From Takakia lepidozioides (taxonomy: Eukaryota > Plantae > Bryophyta), in assembly GCA_030704615.1 (NCBI GenBank), contig CM060734.1, positions 14,880,001 to 14,944,000 on the forward strand: a DNA stretch of 64,000 bases. The letters are read 5' to 3'. The notes under the pieces were generated by a model. The model was not told the DNA's origin. It saw only the letters and a program-made list of their open reading frames with translations, and did no database searches. A program made the translations under genes and the position numbers. This document shows, in pieces, positions 16,647 through 52,442 of this stretch; positions within the stretch are counted from its first letter, which is position 1; every line of letters begins with the position of its first letter.

Positions 16647-17579
16647 ATGTTTCTTATGAACAGATCGAACATATACCCAGACCCTTCTTATTGCATACCT
16701 CCTCCGTATACTTCATGACCAATTTGTAGTCAAAGAACTACCCTCTGTAAACACAAACCCTAATAAAAGCTTACTAGTGTGAGGCAATCCTTTGTGGGGC
16801 AAAGGGAAGAAAGTGGAGGGCAGAGCCAGAAATCACTGTACATTTAGATACTGGGCTCCATCCATGATCCATGACTCACACGATTCCGGTGACGAGGCGT
16901 GTGAGAATAGCTATTATAACTTATTTCAGCAGTGAAGTGGTCAAGTTTTCAGTTGCCATAGGGAGAGCCAGTCACCACGTTTTTCATACTCAGAGGGGTA
17001 GTCCTTTGTGCCGTGAGAGCAAACTGTTAGAGTGGATGTATTCGATCAAAAATATGGAATACTTTTCGGGCACAAACCCTGTCCCTGTTTCGCCCCCTCG
17101 CTGTCCCTGTCACACCCCCTAACAAACCCTGTCACAACCCTTACAACATCAACGCGATGTTCTTCACAAGTTGTTGTTAGGGTTGTAGATGTGCCCAAAA
17201 AGTATGCACTTAACAACATCAACATGATGTGCAAAAAGATGCTTCAAACCAAAGCATCTTCTCAAATATGCTTCTCTTTAAAGCATCTTCCAAATATGCT
17301 TTCATACTTGTACTTGTTCCAGACAACTACTTGTTTGGAACAACCCACTTGTTAACAACTAGTTGTTCCCAACATCCTACTTGTTATTAACCTACTTGTT
17401 CCCAACAACCCACTTGTTCCCAACCTACTCTTCATTTCCAGGGGGCTTTCATATTCATTACATGGTCATGCCACACATATCATGTCATATTATCAGATCC
17501 ATGAATTCAGATGCCTATGTATATGTCATGCCATACATAATTATTTTATTGCCCCGCATATCCAATTGCGACTCTGCAT

Positions 17580-21200: not shown

Positions 21201-24200
21201 AGATTGTGTTGTCTGAGCCTTTGGAGTATGATCTCCAGATGTTGTAAATGTTCTTCCCATGTTGCACTGTGCACATTGATGTCATCCACAAAGACTTTGG
21301 CAAAGGTCTTCAGTTCATCATGGAGTATGATGTTCATGGCCCTTTGGAATGTTGCTGTTGCATTTTTTAATCCAAAAGGCATCACCATCCATTCGAACAG
21401 TCCCCTTTTTGTGATGACACGTCATCCCTCATCTTGATTTGCCAAAATCCAGATTGTAGATCAAGTGCAGAAAACCATTGTGATTTTCCAAGTTGTTGCA
21501 ACACGTCTTGTATCAAAGGCATGGGATATGCATCCTTGAATGTGTGTAGATTGAGTTGCCGGTAGTCACCACAAAATCTCTTACTGCCATCTTTCTTTGG
21601 TGGCAGTGCAATAGGGCATGCATACTCTGACCTGCTGATTCGCATCTTCCCTTGTTGAATAAGTGCTTCAATTTGTTCTTGTACAAGGTTCTCCTCAGAT
21701 TCTGACAGCCTGTTTGCGGGTGTTCTGGTGGCAGGAAACCCTTGGGTGTTGATCTCATGTTCAACATCAGCACAATGCCCCAGATCTGATTTGTTGAGGG
21801 CAAAACTGCCAGGAAAAACTGATTCTGTTAGTTAGTTTTCCTACTGTAACCTTCAGATTGTCGATTACACCTATTGATGTTTCTACAGCACCTAAGCTAC
21901 CCTATATGACATATCTTGATCTGTCAATACACAACCCATGAGTCCCAAATCCCTCACCGTGGTTGCTGCTATCACAGATATCATTGCGCCCGTGTCTATC
22001 TGGCCCATCACTTGGAAGTTTCCAATGGTGACCAATGCATGTAAAACCTTCACTTTGCCATTGAAAGCATAAGATATGGCCTCAAGTTCCTTGTTGCTAG
22101 TTTCAGGTGTCAGTTTTACCTCTCGTTGAACACGATTGGCTGGAAAAGCACTCATCTTGCTCTTAGCTCTTCAGTTTCTCAAATTCTCCTGGCACTTGCA
22201 TGATGACCTCCATTGTTGACATAGATATGCGTCCCTTGTAGAAATGATTCAAATATTTTTGATCTTCCTGTCTCTGGCTCTGGGTATTTCTCAGACCGTC
22301 TTGGGAAGAGGAATTGCCCCGAAGCTCTTGTTTGTTCCTCCGGTAGCTCCTCTTGTGATGAAGCCATTTCTTCGCCTGGTGAACTAGGTCCTCCTTTCGC
22401 ATTGGGTGTAGGCACCGGTGTTCTCACTCTGGGGAGCTGACGTATCTCTTTGATTTCATGATGTGCCATCAGTTGATTCAACTGTTCCAGGACTGCCAAC
22501 TCATCATCACACATAATTTCAAGCAGATTGTTAGAAAGTAATGCATTACCACCTTGTTCCTTTTTCAACCTACAGTCTGGTTCGAAATGTCCTAGAACCT
22601 TTCAAAAGGTACATTTGATTCCACAAGTTTCTGTCCGGTGACCATAGTGATTGCATTTTGCACATTTCACTGGAGTCTTCTGTGTTGGACAGTATGCAGC
22701 CACATGACCCTCCTGCTGGCAGAGGTTACACAAACGAATTCCACCAACTGGAGTTTGACTACCAGAACCTTCAGTGTACACATTCTTCTTTTCAAAGAAC
22801 TTGCTTAGTGTTAGATTTAAAGCATCTAGGCGTTTATCAACGGGCCCAATCACTAAAACCTCTCCTACGTCCTCTCCTTCCATGGGTTCGAAGGGTGTTT
22901 CTCCAATCTTAGATAAGCCACGTTCCACTTGTATGGCAGTCTCCACTGCTTCATCAACACTTTGAAATATGTTTCCTAGCATAAGCTTCATTATCTCATG
23001 CCTAAGACCCCCCACAAACCTTTGACGTTGTTCTAACTCAGGAATTTGTCCTTTAACAAATAGTCGGCTCAAACCTGAACCCTTTGTTTTGGCTCCTGCC
23101 TTGCCTCATCCAACTTCGCCATATCCACGTGTCCAAACTTTGCCAACATGGCCATTTGTAAATTATCCTAGTCTACTGGCTTCGGGTTCTGATGCCTATA
23201 CTAGTCATCTGCTTTACCTTTGAGGTTCAACCTTGCCACCTTGAATATCTTGTCATCTAATAAATCTCTTACATCTCCTACCATTTGTAATTTTTCTATC
23301 CAATCTGCCACATCCTCTGATTCCCTACCATAGTAGGGAGCCTCGACCCCTGATGGACTAGACATCTTTCTACGTATTCTTACTTCAAGTCACTGTTAGT
23401 CTTTCTTCATCCTTACTTCACACTACATCCTAGTTTCTCGTGTTAGCTGTCCAGATCCCATCCTGGATCACTTGTTCTCTTCCACTCATTGTCACTCTTC
23501 TCCACATAGCGGACACCATTACCCATGCATATTTTAGTCCATAATACCACTGTAACCCTATTTCCAGCATGTATGACTCGTACACAAAGGTCTCCATTAT
23601 GCGCTCTTGACGATTGATGGTAAAATGCTGGCCTCGGATTAGTGTATGTGTTTGATCTATACTATATGAAATTAAAACATCTCATATTTCTGGATGAACA
23701 GGTACTATTGCCCGATCGGAACCTGGCATGTTTCTCCAGCTCGATCAGTGCCTAATAATGCCTCTCAATGGGTTCTTGTATGACAAGATCTCACGTTATG
23801 TGACCATCCACTCTCTACCTCTACCGATCGTGTCTATCATTTCCCACACTAGCATCCTAGACTTGTAACCTTGGTGCTCCAAACGGATAAGCACGTCTCC
23901 TTCCTTGAATTCTACGGCTTGTCCCGTGGTCCACAAACTATATCTAATATTAACCGTTGGCCTAAGATCTACGAAGATGTCCCCGGGTTCTGGAAGCCTA
24001 TGAAGTGCTGCTAGTTCGGGATCCACATCTTCTAGTGTATGCTCTATTGGCTGATTCATAAGTTCAGATTCGTCGTCCGAAATGGACTGATCGGACATGA
24101 CTGGTATGATTTATCACGTCATATCCAGCATCTGCCCAAGTGTTACGGTCATGACAAAGTATCCATGCCTTAGCATAGGTTCCTTGTGTGCACGATACGA

Positions 24201-26859: not shown

Positions 26860-28657
26860 AAGTGTAGTTGCCTACCTTGCAAGTTTGGGCGACCACCGCC
26901 TCCACCAAACGGTTGATGGAGTCTTTCGACAGCTCCTGGGTCATATTTAGATGTCTTGGGTCTGGGCACTTTTTTGTCATGTGCCCAGTCTTCTTGCAAT
27001 TAAAGCACACTCATTCAAATGACACATTTTGTCCGCCATGTGCCGTCGAGCCTGATTTTCTTTTCGGAGCACCAGGTGTCGCCTTGGCGTGCAAAGACCA
27101 TCCCTTCGCTTTCTAAGAACCACTGTCGTTGCGTGGCTTATCATACTTCTTTTGATCCGACCGGGAGGAGTCACCCTCCCGCCGAACCTTCTTATGGTTC
27201 AGCTCTTTGCTGCTCTGTCTTTCGTCCCTAGGGACATCCGAGAAGCACTCAGCTCTCTCAATTACCTCGTTCAAAATCTTTGGTGGCTTCTCCTCCAACT
27301 TTCGCCTGGCCCATGGAACCAGTCCCGCCACAAAGTTGAAGACCATTTCTGGTTCCGCCATATCTGCAACTTCGAGCAATAGCACATTCATTTGTTTAAG
27401 GAAGCTTCTCCATCAAGAAACATTTGTTTAATCTTGGAAACTTCTCCAGCAAGAAACCTCCATAGGGGAAGCTTCTTAGTAGCCAGTATATATAGGAGAC
27501 GAGACTGGACACTCTTCAGTCTCGCCAACACAAGTTCAAGCTACTCTTGTTTCCAGTCCCAGTATTCCAGTCCAGCTTCCAGTATACGAACTGCTTCTTC
27601 ATGAGTTCCTCAAACCCGCTCCAGCTTATGGCCTCAGGACTTGGCCCCTGGTCCTGAAGGCGCTTCTGCCACCATTGTTGAGTATTGCCCCTCAAATAGG
27701 TGGGAGCCACCTCCGCTTAGTCCTGGTCATTCAACTTGGCCGCTCGGAAGTACTGCTCCAACTCCAAGAGCCAAATATTGAGCGCCTTCCGATTCTGAAC
27801 ACCCTCAAGAGTTCCAGGCTCCTTAGGTTTCACCTTGAACTTGGCTCTTGTGGATCAAGTGACATGGGCGGTCTCCATCACCACTTTTAGGGTCCACCAA
27901 ATTGCGCCAACAGCCCTTCCCAAAAAGCTGGTGGCATTTGAGGCATCTATTGGTCCAACGGAGCCTTCGGAAGGTCCTTAGGCTCCGGCTCCTCAAATGT
28001 CTTTTGTTCTTGAGCGGCTTTGCGGCCTTCAGAAGAGTAGATTGTCTCTTCCGCTTGCCGCTCCGGCGTCACGTCGCCCCCTCCGGGCTCACTAGGTTCG
28101 TCAGCTTTCGGGTCGTTCCGCTTTTGCTTGGCCTTGTCTGACCCCATGGTGAGGCCGATCTCAAGGACAATTGCGTACTTAACTCTAGGCTCTGATACCA
28201 AATGTCGCGCACCTCACTTTGATAAACTCCCCTTTAAGTCATAGTTACTCACTTTGATGCGCCCGCCTAACTCTCAAACTGGCCGCCGGACCAACTCGGA
28301 GCTTCGGCTGCTCACCGGGGCATAACGGCCCCCGGTTGCCCCACTTCCCTCGACAACGCGGGCTCAGTGGAAATATATTCCATTTGGTTATAGGTTGTCC
28401 GGAATAGCTCCTCACACTTTGGTCGCTTTCTAGCACGCTTGTTTGCTCACTATTTTTTGGTAGCTTAACGGGCTTGCACCATTCTCGGGGTTACATATAT
28501 ACTTCTGTAGGTGTTGGTGGGGGGTCTCACAAACAGCCCATGTCTTTTTCGGCGCACCACCACGGTGACCCTTGACTCCCTATGATGGGTCGTGGTGAGT
28601 CTTGGCCCACCCACCACGGCCCCATGTGGACCGCGGTGAGCCCCAAGACTCCCCAAA
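26860..28657 (-). mobile_element. Truncated Ty3/Gypsy (family B): partial 5' LTR (from 28203), Met PBS (28189-28200), broken gag
   Basis: TGGTATCAGAGC next to ...CGACA LTR end; gag motifs YLRGNTQQWW, VFNFVAGLVPW and a degenerate CFNCKKTGHMTKKC knuckle near 26970-27010. Confidence 0.8.
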
Positions 28658-28659
28658 GT

Positions 28660-31405
28660 ATGCTTGCCCCAAGTGGGAGGTTGAAAATTCCATTGTGTAG
28701 GTTGGTTTCCATGCCCATCGTTCGTCCACCCCTCATCAAGGACATCCTGAAGCTGGAGGCCGAGTTTGTTCATGGGTATTTGGATGGATCCGTAGTCTTT
28801 TACGTTTCTACAAGGGATTCCAGAGGCAATGAGCTCCTTGTGGATGAGTCAATCGTGGAATCCTGGGATCCCATTTGGAGACAGGTGAACGAATCCTTCG
28901 AACTTCTTCTCTCCAGGAAAGTTTCCACCCAGGCATTCTCAGGGAAGATGTTTCACGTTTGGGATGGCAACCACCGGTTGCTTGCATGGATGGCTGTCAT
29001 TGGGAGGCTGCACTCACATGAGGAAGAGTGGCATTACTATGTTCGATCGATGGTGCTGGATTGTGACGGGAACATGATGGGTCTTCTGACGACAATGAAT
29101 GATGTGAACAGGTTGGTTTCTCATTCTACATGTTCCACTTGTGGTTCCGTGGTTCTTTGGTTCCAGTCCTCTGTTGACGGTCCTTGAATTTCATTCTGAC
29201 TTTCAGACATCATTCTGTAGAGGAACGGAGACATCGCATGTCAAAACGAGTATGGTTCACACACTGTACATGATACAAAGGATCGGGCAGATGCCCTTGA
29301 CCAACTTCAAGACCATCCTTTCAGCAGAGACGTACAAGAAGTGCGAAAGCTCCAAGACATCAGAAACGTGGTACTCGTTGACCCGTGAGGCTTTCATGGA
29401 GTATATGTACGCGGTGAGATACATCTTCCATCATCTGGCCTTTCGATATTTCTGCTTCCACATGTTTGTTTCTGTTTGTTTCCCTTGCCCTTGGGTTGAT
29501 GCAACTCTCGTGCATTCCCTTGCAGCAAAACATTGCAGATGCAGGAGAGCGTGGCAAACTGGAATACTACAGCTCTACCCCTGAGGAGAGAAGGACAACA
29601 AAGGGTGTTGAGAGTCACATCCAGAAAGAGATGACCGCCACAAGAAGGACTATTATGAGTGCTTTTGTGAAACAACTGAGAATTGCAGACCCAACCTTCG
29701 GACCAGAGTTCCTTCAAGAGGTGAAAAACCATTACAACAAGCTGAAGTGGCTACAGATATGGAACTCCGATCCCAATGTTAGGGATACCCACATGTTCCC
29801 CAGGCCGGAGAAAGAGAATAAGACCCAGCATGTCATTCCTGTCAGTGACAATGTGCTAGACACATGGCTTCACAAGGCCACTTACTGGAGCCAGGTATGA
29901 TGTCTTTTGCTGTGACACTTTCTTTTCGCTTTTTCTGTCATTATCTTTCCATGTTACATTGGTTGTGATTGTTTTTGGGTTCATTTTTTTTTTTGTATTG
30001 GTCTGCAGTTGAAGGAAAGGGCCCGGTCGGTTCTACATACGCAGCTGGCTGACTGTGGGATCACCATGACAGAACCGAAGGTCTCCTTCCAAGCATACAT
30101 GAGGAAATGGAGAGCCACAGTGTGGCAATCTTGTTTCTTCAGAGAGTTCAGCAAGGATGTTGGCATCAGTCGAACAAATGAGCTTGACCAGCAAGAGAAA
30201 GGAGAGGAAGCTTGGAAACGATGCCTTTACATGTGTGAAATGGACTGTGCTTCTTTGTTTTGCATAGACACACCCTCCTCCATCCAACTTGTTTTTGGCT
30301 GGCTCATATGAGTTTGTGGTGGAGTGTACTGTGTCGCATACTCTTTTACGGGGTCTTCGTGATGGGGTGGAAAAGCTGGGAGACAATATTTGCATTGCAT
30401 AATGAGGCCGTCTTTGTTCCTGTAGGTACATAAAGTATGTTCTCATGGCAGAGAACTGCTTGGACAAACATCCTGATTCGTGGACCTTTGGCTTGTCCCT
30501 GCTAGCAACCAGACCATGTTTACTACGGGGATCTTGCATGACTGGGGCCCAGACCATCTTTCTGCTTGTGGTTGGTATTTGGATTGCCCTGCTTCTGAGA
30601 CCCCAGCTCAGGAGGTGTCTTTGAGGAGAGAGAATGAGCGTATAGTAGCCAGCGCCGCAGCAGCCGACCTCGAAATTCATGATAGAAATTTGAGGACTCT
30701 TGCAGAGAAGGAGCCTCCCGCTCAGGATACACCGGGTAAAGGTAGAAAGGCAAAGGGAAAGGATGTTGCTGGTGGTGTGGGGAAAGGAAGGGGTAGGGGG
30801 AAGGGGCACAAGGGCAGGTAGGTGGGCAGGGAAGTGTTGCAGATACTGGCCCTCTGGTGGAGGTCCAGCAGACTCCACCGCATGGTAGGGGATCCGGGAG
30901 AAAGAACAAGGGGGTGGTTGATCCCATGGACCCGTACCATGCAGTGGAGCATCCCATGAGGGTCATTCGCCCTACCAGGTTGGAGATGGCCAACGTCGGG
31001 TTCCTTGCCATGATGGAGTCCAATAAATCTGATTACAAGGGCGAACCATCACCAGTGTGGGAGAGGATTGTGGAGTTCCTCGGCACAGTGCGTGTTGTCT
31101 TTTCATTCTTGTCTGTTGTGGGCATGGATCGTTTCAATCCTCTTGAGCATTCCATTGCATGCTTGTTTGCAGGCTAAAATTACCAAATCCTGGGTCAACG
31201 GGAAGGAGAAGCCATATGCAGCCGAACTCATCATCTTGGACATCCCTGATGGGTTGTCAGTCCCGGATGTCCCTCCATCGGGTGCTTGTCCACGTTGGAA
31301 TGCTTTTGATGAGCGCTACTGGCGGTGGATTTTCTCCTTTTGCAATTTCTTTCTGTCCAATGCAAGTGTTTTGGTGCTCATCCAGTCCGAGGGCAACACC
31401 TCTTG
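28660..31405 (+). pseudogene. Spliced, decayed gene: ParB/sulfiredoxin-like N-terminal domain, with a possible N6/N4 amino-methyltransferase start at the C-terminus; 3' end cut by the DNMT-Gypsy
   Basis: FHVWDGNHRLLAW (DGNHR at 28963-28977). In-phase GT-AG introns 29112-29220, 29414-29525, 29895-30008 and 31088-31172. Last exon AELIILDIPDG...WNAFDERYWRWIFSFCNFFLSNASVLVL. Frameshift/stop in the 30300-30860 region. Confidence 0.6.
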
Positions 31406-32400
31406 AACCCTCAGAATAACACGCCCTGCAGTAACATCCAGAGTCGTAGGAGCAGTCTGCTGCAAATAAACATAGTCACCAGGGCTAAACCTCCGAACCC
31501 CAGGACGATATCCTCCACCACGTATAGTGGCATACCTCAACGTATCACGGTGTTGTGCAATGGCAAGGTTCTCAAAAGCCATGGGCATGACTTTCTTGAA
31601 CAACTCTGCACGCTGATCACATGCACATACCCACACGTCCGGATCGTCAAGGTTAAGGACTTGAGCAGTGTCCCTACGAATGGCTGCAGGCAAATCTGGC
31701 TCTCGGCCAAAGAGAAGGAAATATGGTGAGAAGGAGGCAAGTGATGCTTGTTTGCTGAACCTGTAGCCCATGGCTAACCAAGGAACCTGAAGATCCCAAT
31801 CTCCTAGGTGTCCCTTCTGCAAGCCATACTTGCGCAAATCCCTTTTCACCGTCTGAACAACTCTCTCTGCCAAGCCATCGGTCTCAGGATGATCCCGAGA
31901 AGTGGTGCGGTGGTCTATCAAGGCTTTATCACACAAAGCTTGAAACTCCCCCAAGAACTCTCTCCCTTGGTCCGTGAGTACCTTAGCTGGAGCACCAAAT
32001 CGGCTAAGCACACGATCCAAGAATGCATACGCAGCCCCCTCACTAGCCTTGTCAGGCAATGGAACCAACTCAATCCACTTGGAGAAGTGCTCCACCATCA
32101 CCAATACATATCTGTGGTGGCGCATAGTCAGTGGCACCGGTCCTGCGAAGTCAAGACTCCACCTGTAGCCCAATCCCATGATTGGTAGGGGCGTTGAATG
32201 AAGCACGCACCCTGTCACACACCATGCACCTAGCCACGAACTATTGCACCTCTGTATGCATACCATGCCACCAATACTGCCCCTGCAGTAAACTGTGAGT
32301 GCGTCGCACTCCAAAATGCCCCAACTCCTCATGGGCATGCCGCACTAACCGTGCATGCTGTGTGGGATGAGGCACAATCCTCACCCGACCATCCTCCCAC
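31400..32400 (-). pseudogene. Gypsy integrase (HHCC remnant, rve core, GPY/F-adjacent region), truncated
   Basis: HEELGHFG..WWHGM; WSLDFAGP..VMVEHFSKW..VLTDQGREF..HPETDGLAERVVQT..SPYFLLFGR..FSPGDYVYL. Confidence 0.92.
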
Positions 32401-32714
32401 ACTCAAAGTAGGTGTATCCCCTCCCACTTGAACCTCTTGGCTCGCTGCAGGATTCGATCCCTCTCCCTGGCAGTCACAGTGGCTGCCGTGTCTCCCGTGC
32501 GGAGGTAGCCCAACACAGCCGAATCCTCGTGTATATCTCTGGCACCACCTGGCTCATCACTAGCCTCAGGGTCCTCAGACACTTCGTCTACAGTCATCCC
32601 TGTTGTAGGTCCAACCTGACCTCCCGATGCCAAGATACACAAAAATGCAGATGCGTGCCATCCCAGCACCATCTCCTCGTCCGTCTCACCATGCCACCGA
32701 GCTCCAGTGTCATC

Positions 32715-34065
32715 CTATTGGCTCGTGCATGGATTGCGACTCAATCCATCCGCATCCCGATTGACCAAACCCGGTCGATGCACCACCTGAAAGTCATACT
32801 CTTGAAGGATGAGTGCCCACTGTGCAAGCTTCCCCGTAAGCTTGTCTGACTCCATCAACCACTTGAGTGGTTGGTGATCCGTGACAAGGGTGAAGAGATT
32901 GCCGTATAGATAGCACCTGAAGTGTGCCACGGCCCACACTGCAGCTAAGCATTCTCCCTCATATGAGCTATACTTAGACTCTGCAGCATTGTTCGAGCGG
33001 CTAGCATAAGCCACTACGAACTCTCTTCTCTCATCATCCACCTGTGTGAGCACCGCTCCAAGCCCCAGCATGCTCCAATCTGTATGCAGCTGAAAAGGAC
33101 GCCCCCTGATAGGTCGTCTCAAGATGGGCGCCGAGGTCAACCTCGCCTTGAGCTCTTGAAAAGCTTGTTCTTGCTCATCTTCCCACTGCCACTCCTGGTC
33201 CACCTTGGTCAGCTTGGTTAGAGCCTCTGCAATGGCACTGAATCCCTTAACAAACCGTCTGTAATAGTTTGCTAACCCCATGAAAGCTCGAACTCGGCTC
33301 ACATCCGTGGGGCGTGGAACCTGTACAATGGACTCTACCTTAGTCTGCTGTACCCCCAATCCTCCAGGATATATCATGTGACCCAGATACTCAATCTGGT
33401 TGTGGAAAAACTTGCACTTGCCCGGATGTAACTTCAATCCGTGCGTCCTTAATCGCTCAAATACCCCCTGAAGGTGTCTCTCATGCTCCTCCACCGTAGC
33501 ACTAAAGATGATGATGTCATCTATATAGCACCGAGCAAACTCCACCCCTGCTAGAATCCTGTCCATGACTCTTTGAAACTCAGCGGGAGCGTTTTAAGCC
33601 CAAATGGTAAGAACCGCCACTGGTATAGGCAATCCTTCCCGTGCTCATTGATCCCCCAGAATGCCGTCTTTTGCTTATCCGCCTCCTTGATCGGCAACTG
33701 GTGATATCCGGATCGTAAATCCAACATGCTAAAGACCTTGGAATGCCCAATGGCATCAAAGATCTCCTCTGGTGTTGGCATGGCATACCTATCGGACTTG
33801 GTCTGACGATTTACAGGCCGGTAATCACCGCACATACTCTCTCCGTCCAATTGCCATAGACATCCTTCTTAGCTGGCATCACTGTGGCTGAAGCATACTC
33901 TCCACCAGAGAGCTCCACCAAACCTGCCTCCCAGAGATCTTGAGTCCTCATCTGAATCAAAGACCTCTCCATGTCACTGTATCTATAGGGTCTCCGAAAG
34001 ATTGGCGTGTCAGTGGCCAACTCAATACGGATCTCTTGACCCTTCAGTGCTCCCAAGTCCTTCAA
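32715..34065 (-). pseudogene. Gypsy reverse transcriptase and RNase H (frameshifted)
   Basis: PIFRRPYR, CGDYRPVN, LDLRSGYHQ, LPFGLK, YIDDIIIFS, TDWS..GLGAVL, YEGECLAAVWA, TDHQPLKWL, DADGLSR. Confidence 0.95.
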
Positions 34066-34509
34066 ACTGAAGGCAAAGCAATTCCTGTAAGCCCTCAGGA
34101 ACCGCCGTATACGTCGTCTCTCTCCTCCGGTGACAATGGGTCCAATGTCAGGCTCCCATTGTCCTCCGTAACTGCAACCTTAAGTCCAGTGGGCTTAGAG
34201 GTAGAGGACGCGTCCCGTGGTTGTTATGCTGCAACCTCTTGAGCAGTACCCCCTTCTTGCTTAGTCAATGACAAGGCCTCATCCTGCCCCATCATCTCAT
34301 CATTGAGAACCTCCTCAACCCGAGAAAAATCCCCAACCTCATCCATCACAGCTGCCTTGGCTGCCAACTCCCTTTGGACCTCGAGCACCTCCCACGTGTG
34401 CCATGGATGTCTACACCCGTGGTCCTCACCGGCTCGCCCCCACTCGCTGCCTGTACCGTCTCGGTAGGCAGAGAGACCATAAAGGGGAGTGCACTCCGCA
34501 CTCTACGTT

Positions 34510-35475
34510 GCTCAGCCATAGCCAAGCTGATAATCCAAGTCAAGCAATTGAGATCCATTGCTTGCCCCAACACCTGACGCCGTGATGCCTCAGAAAGAGA
34601 AGGCACCACCGTGGTCCCAGTGGAAAACCCCATAGCCCGCTCTCGCTCGTCGGCATTAGGCTCCACTAACTGCTGCAACTGAGCATCCCACAGGAGGCCA
34701 GGTCCACCATCCCGAAAAGCATGGGATCCTGGGAAGCTGAGCAGTGTAGGTAATGCTGCTCGTGGTTGACCCACCCTGTTGACCACTGCCAAAGGCAAAC
34801 GGTCATCGTGTCTCACACGTTGAGACTGCCTCCCTGTGTCCAAAATGCCATCCACGGTAAGGTGTGCTGGCCGCTGCACCCCATCAAATGCACGCTTGAG
34901 TAGTGCGGGTGGCATCAAGTTAGTCCACCAAAGCCGTGGACGATGAGCCCGTGACCCCACTGCAGCTGCATCCAGCAACACTGCTGACCCAAGCCACGAC
35001 CGGACTTGATGCACACTGGCCATCACCCTGGCCCGAGAATCACCCATCAGTGGTACATTCTCCAAGATATATGCTGGAGATACAGCTTGATGAAGCTGCA
35101 AGCAGCGCAAAATCCGCACCATCTCCCAAAACAGACCCGTCCTCGAGTCTCGCAATCCATTGCCATGCCCGGCTGATGAATGCCCTTGGCAGGGCCAACC
35201 TGCCACTACCAGATCAATGGATCCAACCTGCTCCAAATCCTGCGCCCCCAGCAAAGAAATGTCTGCTGGCAAGGCTTGTTGGTATCCACGAACTGCAGAC
35301 ACTGGCAACAAGTCAGGGTATTGCTGTACCAACTGAGCAACATGGCGCAGTGAGACGCGTCGTGCAGTCTCATCCCTCTCCACATACAGGTAACGTCAAA
35401 CTCGTACACCTGCCTGTAGCACAGCAGCCAATCCGGTGCTGATCCCGCCAAACAAGTCCAGAAGGCAAATGTCTT
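34510..35475 (-). pseudogene. DNMT3-like C5 cytosine DNA methyltransferase domain inside Gypsy pol (one in-frame TGA at 35398-35396)
   Basis: Motif I LLDLFGGISTG (F at 35452), II YLYVERD, III ADI, IV IDLVVAGWPCQGHS (catalytic C at 35191-35189), VI YILENV, VIII AHRPRLWWTNL, IX ERERAMGF..GTT, X RRQVLGQAMD. Canonical, non-permuted order. Confidence 0.93.
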
Positions 35476-35899
35476 CATCCGGATACTGCCACACAATAGG
35501 TGTGGAATCCAATGGTGACAACTGAGGTGGTCCTGGTGCAATACCCGCACTCTCCTCCTCTCCTGACGGAACAAAAGCCTCTACCCAGGCTTGTTGCACC
35601 CGCTGATCAGCAACCTGCTGCAAATCCTTGCTCGTACCCCACAATGGAGTGTGAGCAACCATGGCAGGCAACTCCGCCATACCATGCATGTCATCTTGCT
35701 TTGCTTGAGGTGGCACATCCTCTGCATGGGCATTGCCTTCCAACAACTCTCCAGGCCAACTAACTGCAGCTGTAAAGGCGGCTAGTGTTGGCATCTTGCC
35801 CCGCTGGGCAGCCGCTATACCCCCAATGAATGTCACAGGGAGCTGTGCACGGCGACCATCGCCTGACTGCCATGCAGGCCTGTAGGATGCTGACTCCTC

Positions 35900-36250
35900 C
35901 CAAAAGTCCAGGGTGAAGCCCATGGGGTATAACACTGCCCCACCAACGAGGACATCGTAAGAGACTACGTCTGTCACAATGGCCTTGGCTCGCATTACTG
36001 AGCCATCGATAGGATGATCCGGCTGCAGTCTAATGGCCAACTGATGCCGTGTCATGCCCGAGCCTGCTCTGATCCTCCCAGAGATGTCTGTATCTGGAAA
36101 GGACAAGGCTCCATATCCGCCTCCATGAGGCCCAAACCTGCAATAGCAGCTCTGCCTAACATCAGTGGCTGAGCTCCCGAGTCCAACAAGACCCGCAGTG
36201 GCCGGTACTTCTTGCCTGCCGGTCCACTCAAAGTGAAAATGCCTCCCTGG
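35900..36250 (-). pseudogene. Gypsy aspartic protease (frameshifted)
   Basis: RVLLDSGAQPLMLG, then YDVLVGGAVL in the next frame, which runs on into DNMT motif I. Confidence 0.85.
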
Positions 36251-36499
36251 TTGTCTAACAAGACAACTCCAGGTGTCACCATGGCGCGCTCAAAGGCTGG
36301 CCTAGCTGGCAGCTCCGTCAATCTGACAGCTGTAGCTTGCCAGGGCGCAGCCGTGGCAGTCTTGACCCTCAAATCCGAGGATCCCTCTGCCACTACACCT
36401 TCCACTAACTCCGCAGAAGATGAAGTGACCTCCCCACTCTCACAGAGTGTTGCTGCTAGTCTGAACACTGCAGCTGGTCTCACCCCCGGCGTCGCAATC

Positions 36500-38420
36500 A
36501 TTGTTGCCGAGAACAGTGGGGCCTGACACACAGAGGTGGCTGCCCCAATAACACACCGGCTGCACTAGCCTTGGCAGCAGGTGTCAGTGCTGCACGTGTA
36601 GCTCTCCCCAATGGCATAGTAACCTCCGCCTCGGTAACAGTCGGGCGAGAACTAGGTGCCATGGATGGCGTCGACACAGTCTCCGCCAATGTGAATGACT
36701 GAGGAAGCCTCGCCTGACGGCTTGCCTCCCCACGCTGTGGATCCAATTCCACCTCTGCACCTCGTGGCTCAGGAACTCGTGCTGCTCCTCGAGTCACGGC
36801 TGCAGCAGACTCCACCTGCTCTAGTGGTAGTGCTGCTCCGCACATGAATCCCATGCCTCCCATATCTCCTCCCTCAGGAGCAGGAGGTGGACCATCCCGC
36901 CTGGGAGCCGGTACCGCCTGAGCTATAGCCATGGCAGCGAGCCTCTGCTCTAGCTGCTGAAGCCGATTGGCCATGCCTTGGTCAACACCCTGACCTCCGC
37001 GTCCTTGGCCATGTGGAGCTTGCCCTTGGCCTGCACCTCGTGCCCGACCACCTCGTCCTCTTTGGGCTGGTCCACCTCGCCCCGGCCACCATTATTCCCT
37101 TGGAACTGGCCTGGGCGCAACTCAGGATGCAAGTCATAACACTGGGCATCTCCATGCCCATACTTGCCGCAATGCCCACACTGCAACTATGCAGGCTGTG
37201 CTTGTGCCGGCCTTTTGCCACTCTCTGGGCAATCTCTCTGGACATGGGGTCCTCCACATGTCCAACATATCACCCCTGGTTGCTGTTGGCCTGCAAAAGA
37301 TGCCACGGGCCTTTGCACCTGAGGTCCCCTGTAAGCTCCATGGAACTTGGGCTGGGCAACCTTGCCCCCCTGACCACGCTGTTGGGCAGTCCCTTGTGCC
37401 TGTGGCTCACAGCTGTGCCTCGTGCAGGCATGTCTTTGCCAAATCCAATTGTAACAACTCGCTCCTCCACCATGTTGAGCTCAATCCGCTCAGCCAGCAG
37501 AAACACATCTGCTAATGTGGGTTGGGCTGCTTGTAACAGGGTTGCATCTCGCACCCTTCTCTTGAGCTCCTTGTCCAGAATTCCATACCAAAACTGGATT
37601 GCCTGAGCTTCAGTAACCCCTTGGGTCACACTTATCAAGCGCCTCATACGAGTGTACGCCTCTCGCAGGCTCTCACTGGGTTTGCGCTGGAAGTCTTGCA
37701 AACTTCGCAGCTTCTCTGTCCGTACACCTTGGTAGTTCCTCCGCAACTCCTGGAAGAACTCCACCACCGGGTTGAATCTAGGCACATGTGTTGTAGTCGT
37801 GGCAGGAGGAGTAGTAGCACCTTTTGAACTGGTACCACCTACAGAAGTACCAGCACTACTTGCTCCACTACTAGTGCTGGCAGTGGAGCTATTGGTACTG
37901 ATGCAGCTACTGGTCGCGTCGTGCCTCGAGTAATGGAGACGTAGTCAGGTGACCAATACATCCTCCACTCCTCAATCTCTGCTTCATGTCCTTGCCTGAA
38001 CTCGTGGTAATCGTCCATAGGCGGGCCTTCCAAATGCTGGAACAGTCCCTTCCACGCCATGAATGGGGTGAATAGCTGTGGATTGCGCATCTGCTGCAAA
38101 TCACACCAGCTGTCAAACTCCTGGATAAAGTCATCCAACTCGATTGTGCCCACAGCTCCAGAGTACCTACGAGGCCCCTTCGTAGCTCCATACATCTCCT
38201 CCATGTCGTCCCACAACAATGGCGAATGAAAGTGCACACCTGTTGATGAAGCCTCCGAGTCTGTGTCTGACTCTACAGTAATTGAGGGTGGCGGTGAAGG
38301 TGGTCTGAACCGAATACCTCGTCTTGTGAACCCACTCTCACTGTTACTGCCTGTAGCCGTACTCCCCTCAAAACCCTTGGGTAACTCCGTAATGACACTC
38401 ACAATGTGCACCTCCTCCAC
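36500..38420 (-). pseudogene. Gypsy gag with two zinc knuckles (frameshifted)
   Basis: DDFIQEFDSW; LQDFQRKPSESLREAYTRMRRL..FWYGIL; CWTCGGPHVQRDC (~37270-37230) and CGHCGKYGHGDAQC (~37180). Confidence 0.85.
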
Positions 38421-38939
38421 GTGACACTATAAGGCTCTAGTACTAATCTAATAGTGACACGGGTGGGCACCTGTTGCAGTCTAAGGGTCATATCCCAATG
38501 GCTCAGGGCACCTGCACCTGCATCCACCGCAAGAACTCCTATGGTTGGCTGGTCATCAACCCAGCCTCACCATAGAAGAAACACTGGTGGTCTTGCTGGT
38601 CATCACTCTAGCCTCACCACCGACAGCATACTCTAGGATTGACCGGTGATCAAATCCGGCCTAATCCCTATGAAAGCAAGCGCCCACACAAAACCAACAT
38701 GGCGCACAGTCAAGCATGCAGGTGTTGGGGGGGATCCAAACACAAGAAATCAAAACATCAACACCCCCACACCAAAATCCAGCTGCAATGCTGATCCTGC
38801 AGAATATCCCAGCCCAAAACCCCGGACTGACTGGCCTCCACCAAGAGAGGCTTTGGCAACTACGAGTACAAGGTAATGAAAATAGTACAGAGATGGAGGG
38901 GAAGAATAGAAGCCCGCCCAAGCAAGATCTAATCCTGAT

Positions 38940-39485
38940 CTATGCTATCAACTTCCAGACTTCTCTCAAAGTGCCTCGCTCTGCGTGATGGTAAGGTGTA
39001 GGAGGTATATCTATGTCCAGAAACCTGCCACTAACCTTGTCCCAAGCTACAGTAGCTCGCTCTAACCAACCCTCCTCCTCTTTCTGCCAGGTAGAGACAA
39101 AGCAATACTCCCCTATCTCCCGCTCACTGAACACTAAAGAAAACAAAGGTAGGGTCTGATAGTCTCTCAACTCGAAAGCTTTGAGACGGTTGCGGGTGTC
39201 CTCATTGCGAATGACTGCATCTCCTTCACGCACAACAAACATGTCATTGCTGATGAACCCCCGCTCGTGGTTGCCCTGTGCAGAGCGTATCCGGCTGCAA
39301 CCATGTCTGATTGCACAAACTTGTGTAGCTCCTGCTCCTCTGCTCCAGTACACCACGGCCTTGTGGCTGAACACCTTGGTCCCCGGGGTTGTCTTTGGCT
39401 GTGTTCCAAGCCTAGCTTTCACCCACTTTGGTATTTCACCTACAGCTGCAGAACTGCTGGCTCCAACAGAGTTCTGACTGTCCAA
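38940..39485 (-). CDS. Uncharacterised extra ORF upstream of gag in family C copy 1
   Basis: 181-codon open frame with globular-looking composition, same strand as gag. No recognisable motif. Confidence 0.35.
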   Translation of the reverse strand: MDSQNSVGASSSAAVGEIPKWVKARLGTQPKTTPGTKVFSHKAVVYWSRGAGATQVCAIRHGCSRIRSAQGNHERGFISNDMFVVREGDAVIRNEDTRNRLKAFELRDYQTLPLFSLVFSEREIGEYCFVSTWQKEEEGWLERATVAWDKVSGRFLDIDIPPTPYHHAERGTLREVWKLIA

Positions 39486-40214
39486 GGCGATATTGAGGCC
39501 CTCAATGCCAACTACAGCAGTCTATTGTCTACTGCTAATGCCTGACTCCCAGTATACAATCAACTCGTCCAACTGTTCTCCACTCAAATCAGTCTGAGTT
39601 CCTTGGGAAACATAAATCTTGTCCCCTTGTGTGCACAGGCTAAGAGAAGAGACCTGCCCTTCAATTACGTCCTCATTTCCCCCAGCCATGCAAGGAGTAC
39701 ATCCACAAATTTGTCTCTCATATAGACCAGCACAGGTTCTAGAGACAGGATTGTGGATCTTTCATGGCACACTCACACTCTAAAAATTCCATAGATTTTT
39801 AGCAGAGTCCCAAAAACAAAAACCAGGTCTAGATAGGTAGATTTCCCCTTTCTGCAGCTATCCCCTCAAGAACTGAGTCAAACGGAGCTCATTTGACAAA
39901 GATATGACCAACAGGCTCTAAATCATTTAAATTAGATCAAAATGGCTTTTTTTTTTAAAATTATTTTTTTTTAACACCAAAACTTTCTCGCCATTAAAAA
40001 CTGCTCCCTTCTCCATTGGTTTTCTGCAGTGCACGGGTGCCGGCATGTTTTTTTTTTTTTTTTTTTTTGAGGTCTTCACGGAGCCCACTCACCTGTATGG
40101 CGAATACCTGTGACAGCCCACCTCGGCCTTTTTCCATCAGTTTCTAAGCTATCCTTCTACACTCATCAACATCTTTTGTCTTCTTCGCTTCGCTTCCTGG
40201 CTGTAGCTGTTTCG

Positions 40215-40643
40215 ATGGCGTTTGTAGCAGGTTACTCGAAGGCTTTGAAAACTGGTTTGGCGGTAGATGCCATCTCCAACAGAGAGGCATCGTCAGCAAA
40301 GGCTTCGTCGAGCTGAGCTCCAGTAGATGCAGTTCACTTGACGGAGGGCTTACTTGGGAGAGCCAGCTTCATCATCCACAAGAAGTCGTCTTTCTCGCTT
40401 TCCTTTTGTAGAGCCGTCACTGACGGGAACCTCTGTCTGTTTTTCTAAACCTGCCAGGCACAGTCTAAAACCTTCATGTGCGATTGCCAAGGCTTTTGCC
40501 GTGGGAGAAGACCCGGACTGGAATGACGATGACTATATTGTGTTAGGCTTGGCTCACTGCTTTCAAAAGATGATGATGGAAAGCTCAAGGACGCATTGAT
40601 TGTGGAGCCCGTTACTGCTGGGACCTTTGAGTGTATGGAGAAT
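40215..40643 (+). pseudogene. First-exon fragment of a probable plastid-targeted protein of cyanobacterial-type unknown function
   Basis: Ser-rich transit-peptide-like start, then DDDYIVLGLAHCFQK[-1 nt]DDDGKLKDALIVEPVTAGTFECMEN|gt. From memory it resembles a cyanobacterial hypothetical family (DY.V.GLA.CF...EP). Contains a stop and frameshifts. Confidence 0.5.
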
Positions 40644-41799: not shown

Positions 41800-42226
41800 A
41801 CTTACACACATGTTATCTTGCAAGTGCTAACCCTCAACTCCTACCTTGCACTCACAGGTAAGAGTCATCTTTCTCGAGTGATAGAAAACCAACGAACACA
41901 CTGTTTACACAAAACATGAAAACCAAACCATCACTCTTAGAAATAGTAGTCGAGCCAGGGGCACCCCAAGCTATGGGGACTCCACCCCACAACAACCTGT
42001 ACCCCTACATAAGCACACTCAAATCTAACCGCATGTAGGAGCTTGGTCGCGCAGGCTCAACTCGAGAAAGATGAGCCGCGCGACTGCCGCTCTCGTGAAG
42101 ATAAGACGGACCAGGTGTCAAACTAAACTTGACATCTGATTTAACACTTGACCTAAATCCAAGTGTTAAATACAAATAACTAGTTTTATTCTAGCTGTTT
42201 TCACACTGTGCTTATTTAACTTGACA
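41800..42226 (-). repeat. LTR-like 5' terminal segment, family C copy 1
   Basis: Begins TGTCAAG on the minus strand; collinear with 45850-46247 (tctttctcgagtgata, ggctcaactcgagaaagatgagcc, tttcacact..aacttgaca). Confidence 0.65.
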
Positions 42227-43599
42227 GGCACCGCCACTGGTGCTGGTGCAGCAGTAGCTTGGGTGGACGTCGTAGCTATGGTATCACCAGTCCCACTAGT
42301 CCCACTGCTGCTTGCTGAAGCTGCCGGTGCAGCGGCAGGTGTAGCCACTGCCCTCGTGGCTCTAGTGCCCCTAGTGATGGAGACATAGTCGGGGGACCAG
42401 TACATCCTCCACTCCTCGATCTCAACCTCATGCCCCCGTTTTAACTCATGGTAATCATCCATAGGCGGCCCCTCAAGGTGCTGAAACAGCCCCTTCCATG
42501 CCATGAAAGGCGTAAATAGTTGTGGATTGCGCATTTGCTGCAAATCACACCAACTATCAAACTCTTGGATGAAATCATCCAACTCGATTGTGCCCACTGC
42601 CCGAGAGTACCTTCGTGGCCCCTTGGTAGCTCCATACATCTCCTCCATTGTGTCCCACAACAATGGCAAGGAAACAACTTGCACCGCCGGTATGAGTCTT
42701 CCTGATTCACAATCCGAATCAGAACCTTCCGTAGAAGACACAGGAGGTGAAGGTGGCCTAATCCGCACACCTTGTCTCGTGTACCCACTAGTATCGCTAG
42801 TGCTTGAACCGGCACTCTCCCCAGCAACTAGTGGCACCTCCGTGTTGACAAACTGTCACTCAACCAGTCATGAACATGTCTCTAACCCCCTCTCCACAAG
42901 GTAACAGGGTAGAGAACCTGTTGCGGCTTATGGTTTGGAATACTAGGTTCCTAACATAGCCCACACCTGCACCTGCATCCACCGCAAGCACTCCTATGGT
43001 TGGCTGGTCATCACCTCCAACCTCACCACAGGAGAAACAATGATGGTCTGACTGGTCATCACTCCAGCCGCACCACCGACAGCATACTCTAGGATTGGCC
43101 GGTGATCAAATCCGGCCTAATCCCTATGAAAGCAAGCGCCCACACAAAACTAACATGGCGCACAATCAAGCATGCAGGTATGGAGGGGATCCAAACACAA
43201 GACATCAGAACGACAACTCCCCCACACCAAAAACAACTCCACGGTGTTGCTCCTGCAAGGACACCCCAGCCCAAACCCGGACTGACTCTTGCCTCCACCT
43301 ACGGAAAGGTCTTGGCCTAATGAGAGGGTGGAAAACTACGAGGAAGAGAAGCTAAAGCAATGCCTAACCCCAGCATGCTCTCATCCCAACACTCTTCCTC
43401 TCCTCTCTTTCCTCACTTGCATAACCATGGGAATATCATGAAGATATTCCTCAAACCGCCCTCCACGAGCGTCAGAAATTTGGCCTTCAAGACCACATGC
43501 CAGTCCTTAGGCAGTCCACCAATGCCTCCACGAGTCAGCACTGGCCCTCCACAGGTCAACACGGGCCACCACAAACCAGCCCAGGCCTACACAAATCAC

Positions 43600-44480
43600 T
43601 GGTCACAGCCGTCACAGCCCCACATAGGCCCCAGCCCCAAAGGCCACAGGCGCAGCCCGTCACAGCCCCTCACGGCCTGTCACAGCCCCAAAGGCCACGG
43701 GCGCAGCCCCTCACAGCCTGGCACAGCCCCGAAGGCCACCGGCGCAGCCCCTCACGGCCCGTCACAACCCCGAAGGCCACCGGCCCAGCCCGGCACAGCC
43801 CCAAAGGCCACCGGCGCAGCCCGTCACAGCCTGTCACAGCCCCAAAGGCCACGGGCACAGCCTGTCACAGCCCGTCACAGCCCCAAAGGCCACGGGCCCA
43901 GCCTGTCACAGACCCTCACAGGCCATCACAGCCCCCAAGGCCACCGGCACAGGCCCTCACAGGCCCTTACAGCCCCGAAGGCCACCGGCGCAGCCCGTCA
44001 CAGCCCCGAAGGCCACCGGCGCAGCCCGTCACAGCCTCGGAGGCCACCGGCGCAGCCCGTCACAGCCCCGAAGGCCACCAGCGCAGCCCCTCACAGCCCC
44101 TCACAGCCCCTCACAGCCTCGGAGGCCACTGGCGCAGCCCGGCACAGCCCCTCACAGCCCCGAAGGCCACTGGCGCAGCCCGGCACAGCCCCTCACGGCC
44201 CGTCACAGCCCCGAAGGCCACCGGCACAGCCCGGCACAGCCCCAAAGGCCACGGGCACAGCCTGTCACAGCCCCAAAGGCCACGGGCCCAGCCTGTCACA
44301 GCCCCTCACAGCCCGTCACAGCCCCGAAGGCCACTGGCGCAGCCCATCACAGCCCATCACAGCCTCGGAGGCCACCGGCGCAGCCCGTCACAGCCCGTCA
44401 CAGCCTCGGAGGCCACCGGCGCAGCCCGACACAGCCCCTCACAGCCCCCAAGGCCACAGGGACAGCCCGTCACAGCCCCA
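43600..44480. repeat. GC-rich compound minisatellite (cacagccc / gaaggccaccggcgcagccc modules)
   Basis: Dozens of 10-30 bp modules; gives stop-free frames (400 and 335 aa) of repetitive peptide. Confidence 0.95.
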
Positions 44481-44899
44481 TCCATGGCCGCTCTGGCAGT
44501 TTAGCCATTTCTCCAAGGGGTTTAGCCACGCCAAGCTAGGGTTTGTGTCTCTTGGACTCTAGGCTTCTTTGCACCGAGCTATGGTGGCTGTGAGGAAATC
44601 AGCAAGGTATTCTTGCTCTTTCGGCTCCCACACACCACCAATAGTAGCCCTAAGCCATGAGGTGGTTGCCACAAACCAAGCCTTCTTTTTCACTTAGCCT
44701 CCCCAACCACGCCACTAAACTCAATGGCAAACAACCAAGCCTTGCTGGTTTCTTGCCCTTGTGAGCACTCATTCAAGCACTCTCCTTGGCCATAGCATCT
44801 GTCTTAGAGCCTATTCCAGCCCCCTGCACCTGCCACTTCAAGAGCCATGCTCTATCTAGGCTCGGGGTTGAAACCCCAACTCACATATGCCCTACAAGT

Positions 44900-45350: not shown

Positions 45351-46247
45351 TTGATGCTCTCTAAGACAAGACTAAGCACTCCACAGCCTTTGCCAAGCTC
45401 TTGAAACCCTAAGGCTTACATTTCCAGCCACAAGACACTCCTCTTGTGGTGCAAGAGCTTTTCTTCCAAGCTCTGAAACCCTAGGTGCACATTCCATGGC
45501 CTTGCCACACCTCTTAGCTCCTGTTCCAACCCCGCTCTTGCCATGGCAAGAGCCCTCATACCGCTGGAGTTTCAGATTGAAACCCCCAACTCAACATAGC
45601 CACAAATGCATTGGCTTGCATACAAGAGAAATCAGCCATCTCTCTTCACTCATACCTCCTTATGAGCTTGAAGTTGGAGCTCCTGATAACTGTGACTTAC
45701 ATCTAACACCCTCGCAGCTCCACATTGCTGCAGCTCCTTAGCTCGGCTTGCAGCTAAAGAAGACGACCACCAGTTCGCCTTTGCACTCTATCCACTTTGG
45801 ATAGGCTAATGTACGGATCCCTGCACTCTAGGCTGAACCGCTTCTCATGAAAACACAAGTGCTACAAAACAACTCGAACCTAGCACTCACAGACTCGAGC
45901 TGATCTTTCTCGAGTGATAAAGAAGAAGAAGAAGAATACAAGCACAAGCTCATGCGAGCTCACAAAGCTGAAGCATCAACTCATGCATATATAAACTCAT
46001 TACTCAAATACAAGTCAAGCCAAGTGCACCCCACGCCATGGGGAATCCACACTACGGCGCCATAGCTAGGCGCGGTGAGGCTCAACTCGAGAAAGATGAG
46101 CCTCTCGCGCTTGCTGTGAAGATAACCACTCCAGGGCCTAAATCTGCCTTGACCCCTGGATTGACACTTGGGCCAATCCCAAATGTCAATATGTAAAAGC
46201 TAGCTATTTCCTAGCTAGTTTCACACTAGTGGTAAAATAACTTGACA

Positions 46248-47030
46248 CGTCTTTCAACGTCCCGCCAAACTGCGCCAACAACCCTTCCCAAAAGGCTGCT
46301 GGCATGGGAGGCATCTGTTGGTCCGTCGAAGCTCTCAGGGATTCCTCGGGCTCCGACTCCTCAGATTCCTCCCGTTCTTGAGCGGCCTCGCTTTCAAAAG
46401 CATGCATCGCTTCCTCAAATGGCCGCTTCGGTGACACGTCGCCCCCATCGGGCTCACCAGGATCATCATCTTTCGGGCCGTTCCGCTTTCGCTTTGGCTT
46501 GCCCGACCCCATGATGAGGCCGATCCCAAGGACGATCGCGTACTGAACTCTAAGCTCTGATACCAAGTGTCGCGTACCTCACTTCGGTAAGCTCCCCTTC
46601 AAGTCATAGTTACTCACTTTGATGCGCGCGCCTAACTCCCAACCTGGCCGCCGGGCCAACTCAGAGCTTCGGCTGCTCACCGGGACATAACGGTCCCCCT
46701 TTTCTCCCCCAACAGACCCTCCACCAGTTTGGGCCTAGTGGAAATTCCCTTTGGTAGATGGCAGTCCGGAATAGCTCCCCACTTCTTGGTCGCTTTCCGG
46801 CTCGCTCGCTTACTTACTAGTTTTTTGTTACTAACGGGCTTGCACCATTCTCGGGGTTACTACTCCCTATATATACTTCTGTGACTGTCCGCGGGGGTTT
46901 CACAAACAACCATGCCATTTTATGGCGAACCACCACGAAGACCCTCGATTCCCGGTGATGAGTCGCGGTGAGTCTTGGCCCACCCACCACGGCCCCATTG
47001 GACTGTGATGAGTCCCAAGACTCCCCACGA
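46248..47030 (-). mobile_element. Family B Gypsy fragment, copy 2: partial LTR (from 46568), Met PBS (46554-46565), gag start
   Basis: Collinear with 27890-28657; MGSGKPKRKRNGPKDDDPGEPDGGDV vs MGSDKAKQKRNDPKADEPSEPGGGDV. Confidence 0.85.
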
Positions 47031-52187: not shown

Positions 52188-52442
52188 CTGCAAAGAGCAG
52201 AACCACACTTCAGAACAGTGCACGGGTACAACATAAAGAAAGCAAGGAGAGCAAAATTTGGAAAGTAAATGTATGAATAAAGCTAGCAATACAAGCCTCG
52301 CACCATTGTCATTATAAACATGTATGTAAATATTTTTAGCTTATGACCAGCATAGTGTATCCAGGCGTGGTTTTGTGGAGGGAAAGAATGTGAATAATTT
52401 ATCAGATCAAACTATCATAGGCACTCTCAAAGATTGCTCGCC

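Follow-up and report, generated by a model that had tools for sequence, protein, structure and literature searches.

A decayed bryophyte Ty3/Gypsy-type retrotransposon with a DNMT3-like methyltransferase, predicted to be made at the level of Gag

It has been asked since 2018 why retrotransposons carry an enzyme of host silencing, and so far the carriers known have been algae in which genetic tools are limited. Nearest among them to the element described here is KnitGypsy-Dnmt3 of the charophyte Klebsormidium nitens, a Gypsy element with a Dnmt3 domain and DIRS-like repeats (de Mendoza et al. 2018, PMC5890265); Gypsy-borne Dnmt3 as such is known. According to the accessible text of that paper, its survey took in seven embryophytes, with neither a liverwort nor Sphagnum among them. 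Streptophyte elements are mentioned, and no land plant is named, in the accessible parts of PMC12344493 and of bioRxiv 10.64898/2026.05.21.726589, the latter treating streptophyte Gypsy-DNMT3 as a separate acquisition. In the part of PMC6338049 available, transposon-encoded methylases are assumed to have been lost in land plants. The available parts of 10.1101/2021.11.30.470311, 10.1101/363937 and PMC11982613 contain nothing on a bryophyte family that carries a DNA methyltransferase (DNMT), and our literature search, which took in few subscription journals and left Repbase outside, yielded no report of retrotransposons with a DNMT from bryophytes or other land plants.

Here we have analysed a stretch of 64,000 nucleotides from contig CM060734.1 (positions 14,880,001 to 14,944,000), called the window below, which contains a copy, now decayed (dead), of a Ty3/Gypsy-type retrotransposon family of bryophytes with a DNMT3-like domain. 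Three points are new: the family's range extends to land plants, its DNMT would be made at the level of Gag, as a conserved stop predicts, and chlorophytes have a second architecture. The element lies on the minus strand and shows, in order, gag, two zinc-knuckle-like motifs, protease, C5 methyltransferase, reverse transcriptase (RT), RNase H and integrase; gag, protease, RT, RNase H and integrase thus stand in the order that defines Ty3/Gypsy elements. In the Pfam scan, PF00145 (E 7e-13), RVT_1, RT_RNaseH and rve (E 3e-14) all score above the cut-off, and Retrotrans_gag (PF03732, E 7e-4) and Asp_protease_2 (E 0.05) fall below it. Window gag and protease are 50–77% identical to Marchantia relatives, gag alone 75–77% to Mp4g09160. 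The frameshifted gag occupies 37150–38204, with its ATG at 38204 and the zinc-knuckle-like motifs at 37267–37154. It is followed by the aspartic protease at 35860–36330 (LDSG at 36186–36175, frameshift near 36056), the methyltransferase at 34514–35480, RT at 33354–34158 (YIDD at 33527–33516, frameshifts near 34157, 33837 and 33591), RNase H at 32700–33248 (PF17917, E 2e-35), and integrase at 31397–32378, whose HHCC motif and DDE core are present and which ends before the position of the PHD finger of relatives.

All the motifs listed in the first-pass annotation, from LDSG through YIDD, are present on the minus strand in the order given there. Within the methyltransferase we have mapped LDLFGG at 35461–35444, YVERD at 35386–35372, AGWPCQG at 35203–35183, LENV at 35065–35054, RAHRPRLWW at 34951–34925, ERAMGF at 34642–34625 and LGQAMD at 34570–34553. 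That is, motifs I, II, IV (PC), VI (ENV), VIII (RxR), IX and X follow one another canonically, motif I is read in the frame of the C-terminal protease half, and no intron is required, all as first proposed. A structure model spanning motifs II–X was predicted with a pLDDT of 95.5. In VIA-align its top 36 rows are all DNMT3 chains, the best being DNMT3A (Z 22.9, root-mean-square deviation 2.6, 243 residues aligned) against 18.6 for M.HhaI, and the top Foldseek match is DNMT3A as well (E 7e-15). By sequence, phmmer also places DNMT3A first (1.6e-7), ahead of DNMT3B, HhaI, DRM2 (0.13) and DNMT2 (0.32). Because both the structure and the phmmer rankings put DNMT3A first, the domain is DNMT3-like by sequence and predicted fold, nearer to DNMT3 than to HhaI, DRM or DNMT2; this assignment comes from similarity and fold, our DNMT trees being made up of transposon DNMTs and one viral DNMT. 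In related metagenome loci the catalytic cysteine is kept in 71/71 loci that cover the site, and the glutamate of ENV in 69/74 (duplicates included). Methyl transfer to DNA is a predicted activity of the domain, read from its sequence.

A related possibility is that the domain has been kept for another job: it might bind or protect nucleic acids, or methylate the RNA of the element. According to the accessible text of PMC5890265, the Klebsormidium relative did not methylate DNA in yeast, and RNA methylation has been proposed for another transposon DNMT. Against this stand the preserved catalytic residues, a fold nearest to the DNA-acting DNMT3, and a sequence match to DNMT2 at just E 0.3, and we consider such a role improbable.

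The family is not confined to the window. Our DNMT query gave 275 protein matches of similar length and 68 longer ones, and we have examined 120 of the 275 together with 150 of 3,448 in a further listing, most of them without an organism name. The named ones among the matches listed come from Marchantia polymorpha (20 records from several assemblies, partly redundant), M. paleacea, Calypogeia fissa, Riccia sorocarpa, Sphagnum troendelagicum and S. fallax, and bryophyte matches are mostly 55–74% identical. Among these 120 and 150 listed matches, no named one belongs to Physcomitrium, Ceratodon, hornworts or vascular plants. The Marchantia and Sphagnum records have the same domain order as the window, and Calypogeia and Riccia have DNMT homologues. 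In addition, we have collected the best 80 of 101 metagenome loci (58 distinct among the 77 with mapped DNMT codons). Where length allows, these show gag, zinc finger, protease, DNMT, RT, RNase H, integrase and PHD finger in this order, save a few with internal deletions. Three sampled loci (L003, L018, L023) cluster with or beside Sphagnum proteins in the tree, a placement that suggests a Sphagnum-like host.

In the host runs, DNMT depth equals RT depth, and in run X2 it reaches 14,000–39,000 across the element, compared with 9 in the flank. Taking depth as a rough sign of repetition rather than a copy number, the family looks highly repeated in the host. In run X11, labelled as another organism (C), one contig of 5,009 nt spans 34100–35500, from the DNMT core to the RT start, with 104 differences from the window in 1,401 bases; it may come from a close relative, from contamination or from transfer. 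These data bear on the idea that the DNMT is a mere passenger, captured once or joined to the element by a chimeric assembly, to which the decay of the window copy and its nesting among other elements might lend some colour. Since dozens of loci, as well as named proteins of Marchantia and Sphagnum, have the domain in this position, DNMT and RT have equal depth, a single X11 contig crosses the DNMT core and RT start, and the trees are congruent, one-off capture or chimera is excluded. The proposal that the element is of Ty3/Gypsy type, and that the DNMT3-like domain is an integral part of it, therefore stands, on the Pfam matches, the same order in relatives and the fold.

The congruence can be seen in 28 matched elements, for which the DNMT tree and the RT–RNase H tree give the same four groups with support of 99–100; the bryophyte elements fall together with two distant loci, L050 and L052. 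The RT outgroup consisted of two DNMT-less neighbours. Between the window and the metagenome clade, pN/pS is 0.21/0.74 for DNMT, 0.19/0.76 for RT and 0.18/0.72 for integrase, so the DNMT has been under purifying selection across subfamilies (pN 0.21 against a saturated pS of 0.74). Overall, DNMT and RT have long been inherited together. A scan of viral contigs gave a single distant match only. In pol proteins of Scenedesmus sp. PABB004 (KAF8056149.1, KAF8057711.1), a related DNMT lies between RNase H and integrase. This order, RT, RNase H, DNMT, integrase, PHD, is found in 31/346 proteins examined, chlorophyte records among them, which form one group in both trees; we have found no paper describing such elements.

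The DNMT had been placed inside pol. It does sit between protease and RT, but upstream of a conserved in-frame stop at 34218–34226 (minus strand), which ends the first open reading frame (ORF1). In the window this is TAA (34226–34224) followed by CAA-CCA, and ~99% of the run X1 depth has TAG there. At the same place, TAG or TAA followed by CAR-YY occurs in 47/50 distinct loci, compared with 0.8% for the background (201/24,740 stop triplets of those loci), and the stop is in the RT frame in 45 of the 47 motif-bearing loci. The apparently intact sister-clade element L050 (976–8229) consists of 2,418 codons in a single frame, whose sole internal stop is TAG-CAG-TTA between DNMT and RT. The Marchantia ORF1 proteins stop 82–88 residues past the DNMT (at 88 aa in Mp4g09160 and Mp8g17980). 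Since a conserved stop parts DNMT from RT, ORF1 is read as Gag-protease-DNMT, with the DNMT outside the low-abundance pol part, and an unusual stoichiometry is predicted in which the enzyme is made at the level of Gag.

The contexts of the stop include CAA-CCA, CAG-TTA, CAA-TCA and CAA-CTA. The broader form of the readthrough context is CAR-YYA. In the available text of PMC2754532, plant readthrough of the tobacco mosaic virus type uses CAA UYA and requires the C after the stop. Readthrough is our best reading of these sequences, and the stop in the window is likely such a signal. Alternatively, the stop could be bypassed by splicing or reinitiation; RT would then have an mRNA of its own, and the stop would not determine the DNMT:RT ratio. 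In the Sphagnum-like clade the TAG sits after a T-rich tract and could be a 3' splice site, and an ATG follows two codons downstream. This alternative is rather unlikely, as both ORFs share the frame of the stop (shown by the RT frame of the motif-bearing loci and the single frame of L050), and CAR-YY, unlike the ATG, has been retained in divergent subfamilies.

The ends of the element can be seen in eight relatives with both ends. It had been expected that the family would have paired long terminal repeats (LTRs), but the complete relatives have split repeats instead of two complete flanking LTRs: three are of the form A…BAB, and five carry a single B at the 3' end (A…B). The element is filed as Gypsy-type by its enzymes, and its ends are atypical. 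The relatives' ends are TG…CA (one start has decayed to TA), and 4-bp target duplications are exact in 6/8 complete elements and have one mismatch in 2/8. A purine tract stands immediately before the first B. At the B/A junction CA-NN-TG is found throughout, including in the distant L050 and L052, and the A/B junction is variable in two insertions. Extra bases at A/B, including remnants of the purine tract and the post-A sequence, are seen at L041:10800–10870, L055:13200–13260 and L058:5660–5720, L055 and L058 being one insertion. As the expected residue of imprecise end-joining, they suggest a two-LTR circle. The A…B form could also arise later by B–B recombination. Two other element types were considered and set aside: a DIRS/PAT tyrosine-recombinase element is excluded by the rve integrase and the 4-bp duplications, and Troyka (CG…CG ends, 3-bp duplication and animal hosts in the available text of PMC12440569) is rejected given the TG…CA ends and 4-bp duplication of the relatives.

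No tRNA-type primer site was found after A in the relatives. Instead, the 12 nt directly after A are complementary to position 166–169 of A in 10/16 loci (two of them one insertion), and L050 shows, at the corresponding places, a 16-nt pair of unrelated sequence; a pairing of the self-priming type thus occurs with different sequences in two clades. Self-priming is known for Tf1/Sushi and predicted for moss Tcn1 elements (PMC6317226, in its accessible part). From these sequences, reverse transcription likely self-primes in the relatives. No such pairing was found in the 5' end of the window copy.

Based on the above analyses, we propose, with a probability of about 0.6, that Gag-protease-DNMT builds the particle, that the protease frees the DNMT, and that the DNMT methylates the cDNA before integration; activity, readthrough and packaging are all deduced from sequence. 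Low-frequency ribosomal readthrough of the stop would give RT, RNase H, integrase and PHD finger, so that DNMT would outnumber RT many-fold. Inside the particle, the protease would release the DNMT. Reverse transcription would prime itself and the plus strand would start at the purine tract before repeat B, and therefore B+A would function as the LTR. The DNMT would methylate the cDNA, and the new copy would arrive marked like host heterochromatin. The integrase would cut a one- or two-LTR circular cDNA at the CA-NN-TG B/A junction, so that insertions of the form A…B or A…BAB, flanked by 4-bp duplications, would result, and the PHD finger may guide the choice of target.

On the other hand, several observations weigh against this proposal. 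The complement after A is at its expected place in just the 10/16 loci, and of the folds with this pairing, that of L046 is no better than shuffles (z -1.0; L050 z -4.8). KnitGypsy-Dnmt3 gave no methylation in yeast, a result that its authors call inconclusive in the accessible text of PMC5890265. The stop context is CAA-CCC, not A-ended, in 38/47 motif-bearing loci, and the CAA-CCA of the window is not an exact match to CAA UYA. In a Klebsormidium-like clade, DNMT and RT share one called frame, so Gag-level expression would not be needed everywhere. Inside the decayed metagenome clade, dN/dS is 0.52 for DNMT, 0.37 for RT and 0.94 for PHD. The C-to-T decay spectrum (CG 0.20, CHG 0.23–0.25, CHH 0.07) has CHG as high as CG, and host silencing alone explains this. 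Finally, end structure, target duplication and PHD finger are invisible in the truncated window copy. CpG and CHG composition and the mutation spectrum did not separate the element from its neighbours, and did not reveal the sequence context of the enzyme.

An active DNMT might also work outside the particle. In this case, free Gag-protease-DNMT or the cleaved enzyme would enter the nucleus and methylate integrated copies or target chromatin, either as a self-limiting brake or, with the PHD finger, to shape insertion sites. Proteins of retroelements usually reach the particle as fusions to Gag and protease, which argues against a nuclear role, and a brake would fit poorly with the apparent high abundance of the family in the host runs. 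In its favour, production at Gag level would exceed the enzyme need of one cDNA, a PHD reader accompanies the DNMT in both architectures, and self-restraint was raised as an idea in PMC5890265, as far as its available text goes. We regard nuclear action as unlikely, if less so than the other alternatives above, and prefer methylation of cDNA inside the particle.

A wider history can be suggested tentatively, and we would give it somewhat less than even odds. One DNMT3 may have been carried by an old green-lineage, PHD-bearing Gypsy-type clade through chlorophytes and charophytes and on to land plants. Elements of the Scenedesmus type would have it between RNase H and integrase, those of the streptophyte type after the protease. 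In the branch with the bryophyte elements, a leaky stop would then have made the DNMT a cargo of the capsid in stoichiometric amounts, with methylation of the circular cDNA ahead of its integration.

The copy in the window is decayed, as first noted, with several frameshifts and stops. Frameshifts lie near 37884, 37079, 36542, 36056, 34415, 34157, 33837 and 33591, and other contigs of the host runs differ there. A TGA at 35398–35396, between motifs I and II, is specific to the window copy, since ~90% of the run X1 depth has another letter at 35398. The element had been given as 31400–38420; it extends beyond this, to a probable 5' end (TGTCA) at 40115, which matches the start of repeat A in relatives (39776–40115, minus strand), the remainder of repeat A being unrecognisable. 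At this end the depth of run X1 falls ~100-fold, from ~96,000 (39776–40142) to ~790 (40143–40500). The 5' leader (38430–39775, minus strand) has a block at ~38500–38860 in common with a second copy, at 91% over 38561–38732. It also contains a stop-free frame of 193 codons (38943–39521, minus strand) with about half the depth of the coding region, for which there was no Pfam match and no match among related loci. The 3' end, with PHD finger and terminal repeats, is lost past ~31397, and no LTR pair, PHD finger or target duplication was found in the window copy. A second, diverged fragment of the same family (42227–43316, minus strand; 77% nucleotide identity over 970) comprises leader block and gag N-terminus, and terminates at LTR-like sequence at 42227.

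The flanks had been taken to indicate a land plant. They do contain a spliced inositol transporter (INT) gene (12432–16712, 7 exon pieces) and PPR fragments (9210–9835, minus strand), but B3 and Agenet fragments were not found among the scanned flank ORFs of at least 85 aa (91 of 165 in one scan, the others in two further scans). In a quick tree of 42 rows, the INT gene is placed together with Ceratodon and two unnamed records (SH-aLRT 97), with liverwort genes as neighbours; it has no close relative, the best being 72%. Judged from this one gene, the host is most probably a moss that stands far from Ceratodon, which agrees with a land plant.

Other features surround the element. A polyketide cyclase/START-like exon lies at 7026–7292 (minus strand). 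A repeated, apparently intron-containing gene at 28576–31396 (plus strand) abuts the truncated integrase; it has a WDGNHR motif and Atlas matches to DUF3723 clusters (score 0.96, the family being on 31% of the top cluster's members), and is probably another transposon. There is a second decayed Gypsy (20221–23105, minus strand), whose RT and RNase H are remote from those of the DNMT family, and no DNMT match was found in it. Nested LTR-like pieces occur at 41821–42227 and 45856–46249, and a segment with a tRNA-Met-type primer site is duplicated at 27894–28655 and 46262–47027. A tandem array of 10/31/41 nt lies at 43562–44525. Two related sets of long ORFs (50988–52340 and 58396–61759, minus strand), with no Pfam match and a weak SWIM match nearby, are likely DNA transposon remnants.

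Considering that the family is annotated in Marchantia polymorpha (e.g. Mp4g09160, Mp8g17980), the question of why such enzymes are carried becomes testable in a model land plant. Split ends and 4-bp duplications point to an integrase acting on a circular intermediate; if circular cDNA is indeed pre-methylated, the transposon would write the epigenetic state of its own new insertions. In addition, bryophyte annotations may count too many DNMTs because of such loci, which search tools relying on paired LTRs would probably miss.

How does the family compare with known systems? Host DNMT3 of bryophytes shares the DNMT3-type fold and canonical motif order, whereas the window domain differs from host DNMT3 and DRM in being intronless and embedded in a retroelement, and DRM2 matches it by sequence at just E 0.13. 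The EpiLTRs/DAM-LTRs, as described in the accessible part of bioRxiv 10.64898/2026.05.21.726589, are likewise LTR elements with DNA methyltransferases and a chromatin reader, but their DNMTs, from Cymbomonas and Euglena, are sister to DNMT4 and come with DAM and a chromodomain. In the available text of PMC6317226, Chlamyvir (REXdb) mostly has a stop within the polyprotein (GAG:s:PROT-RT-RH-INT), and self-priming is predicted for the Tcn1 chromoviruses of mosses. Compared with both, the stop here comes after protease-DNMT, a PHD finger replaces the chromodomain, and the ends are split; Chlamyvir also has a 5-bp duplication, against 4 bp in relatives of the window element. The best functional analogue is SymbioDIRS-Dnmt3, a retrotransposon-borne Dnmt3 with de novo CG methylation shown in yeast according to the accessible text of PMC5890265; it belongs to a dinoflagellate tyrosine-recombinase DIRS element, unlike the bryophyte family with its DDE integrase and 4-bp duplications.

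KnitGypsy-Dnmt3 is the closest, sharing the Gypsy domains, the intronless, unpermuted Dnmt3-like domain between protease and RT, and the DIRS-like split repeats, which are seen here in relatives and invisible in the window copy. The suggested kinship to a charophyte element is borne out by K. nitens KFL_009030040, which has the order protease, DNMT, RT, RNase H, integrase, and a DNMT 45% identical over 260 aa; by its architecture it would belong to the KnitGypsy-Dnmt3 family, the ID itself not being found in the supplements. PHD finger, 4-bp duplication, self-priming and readthrough are not mentioned for KnitGypsy-Dnmt3 in the accessible text of PMC5890265. The present family differs in its land-plant host, and in the stop that parts Gag-protease-DNMT from RT, where the Klebsormidium-like clade has the two in one called frame. 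Since this stop is conserved, the bryophyte family is a variant of KnitGypsy-Dnmt3 rather than the same element.

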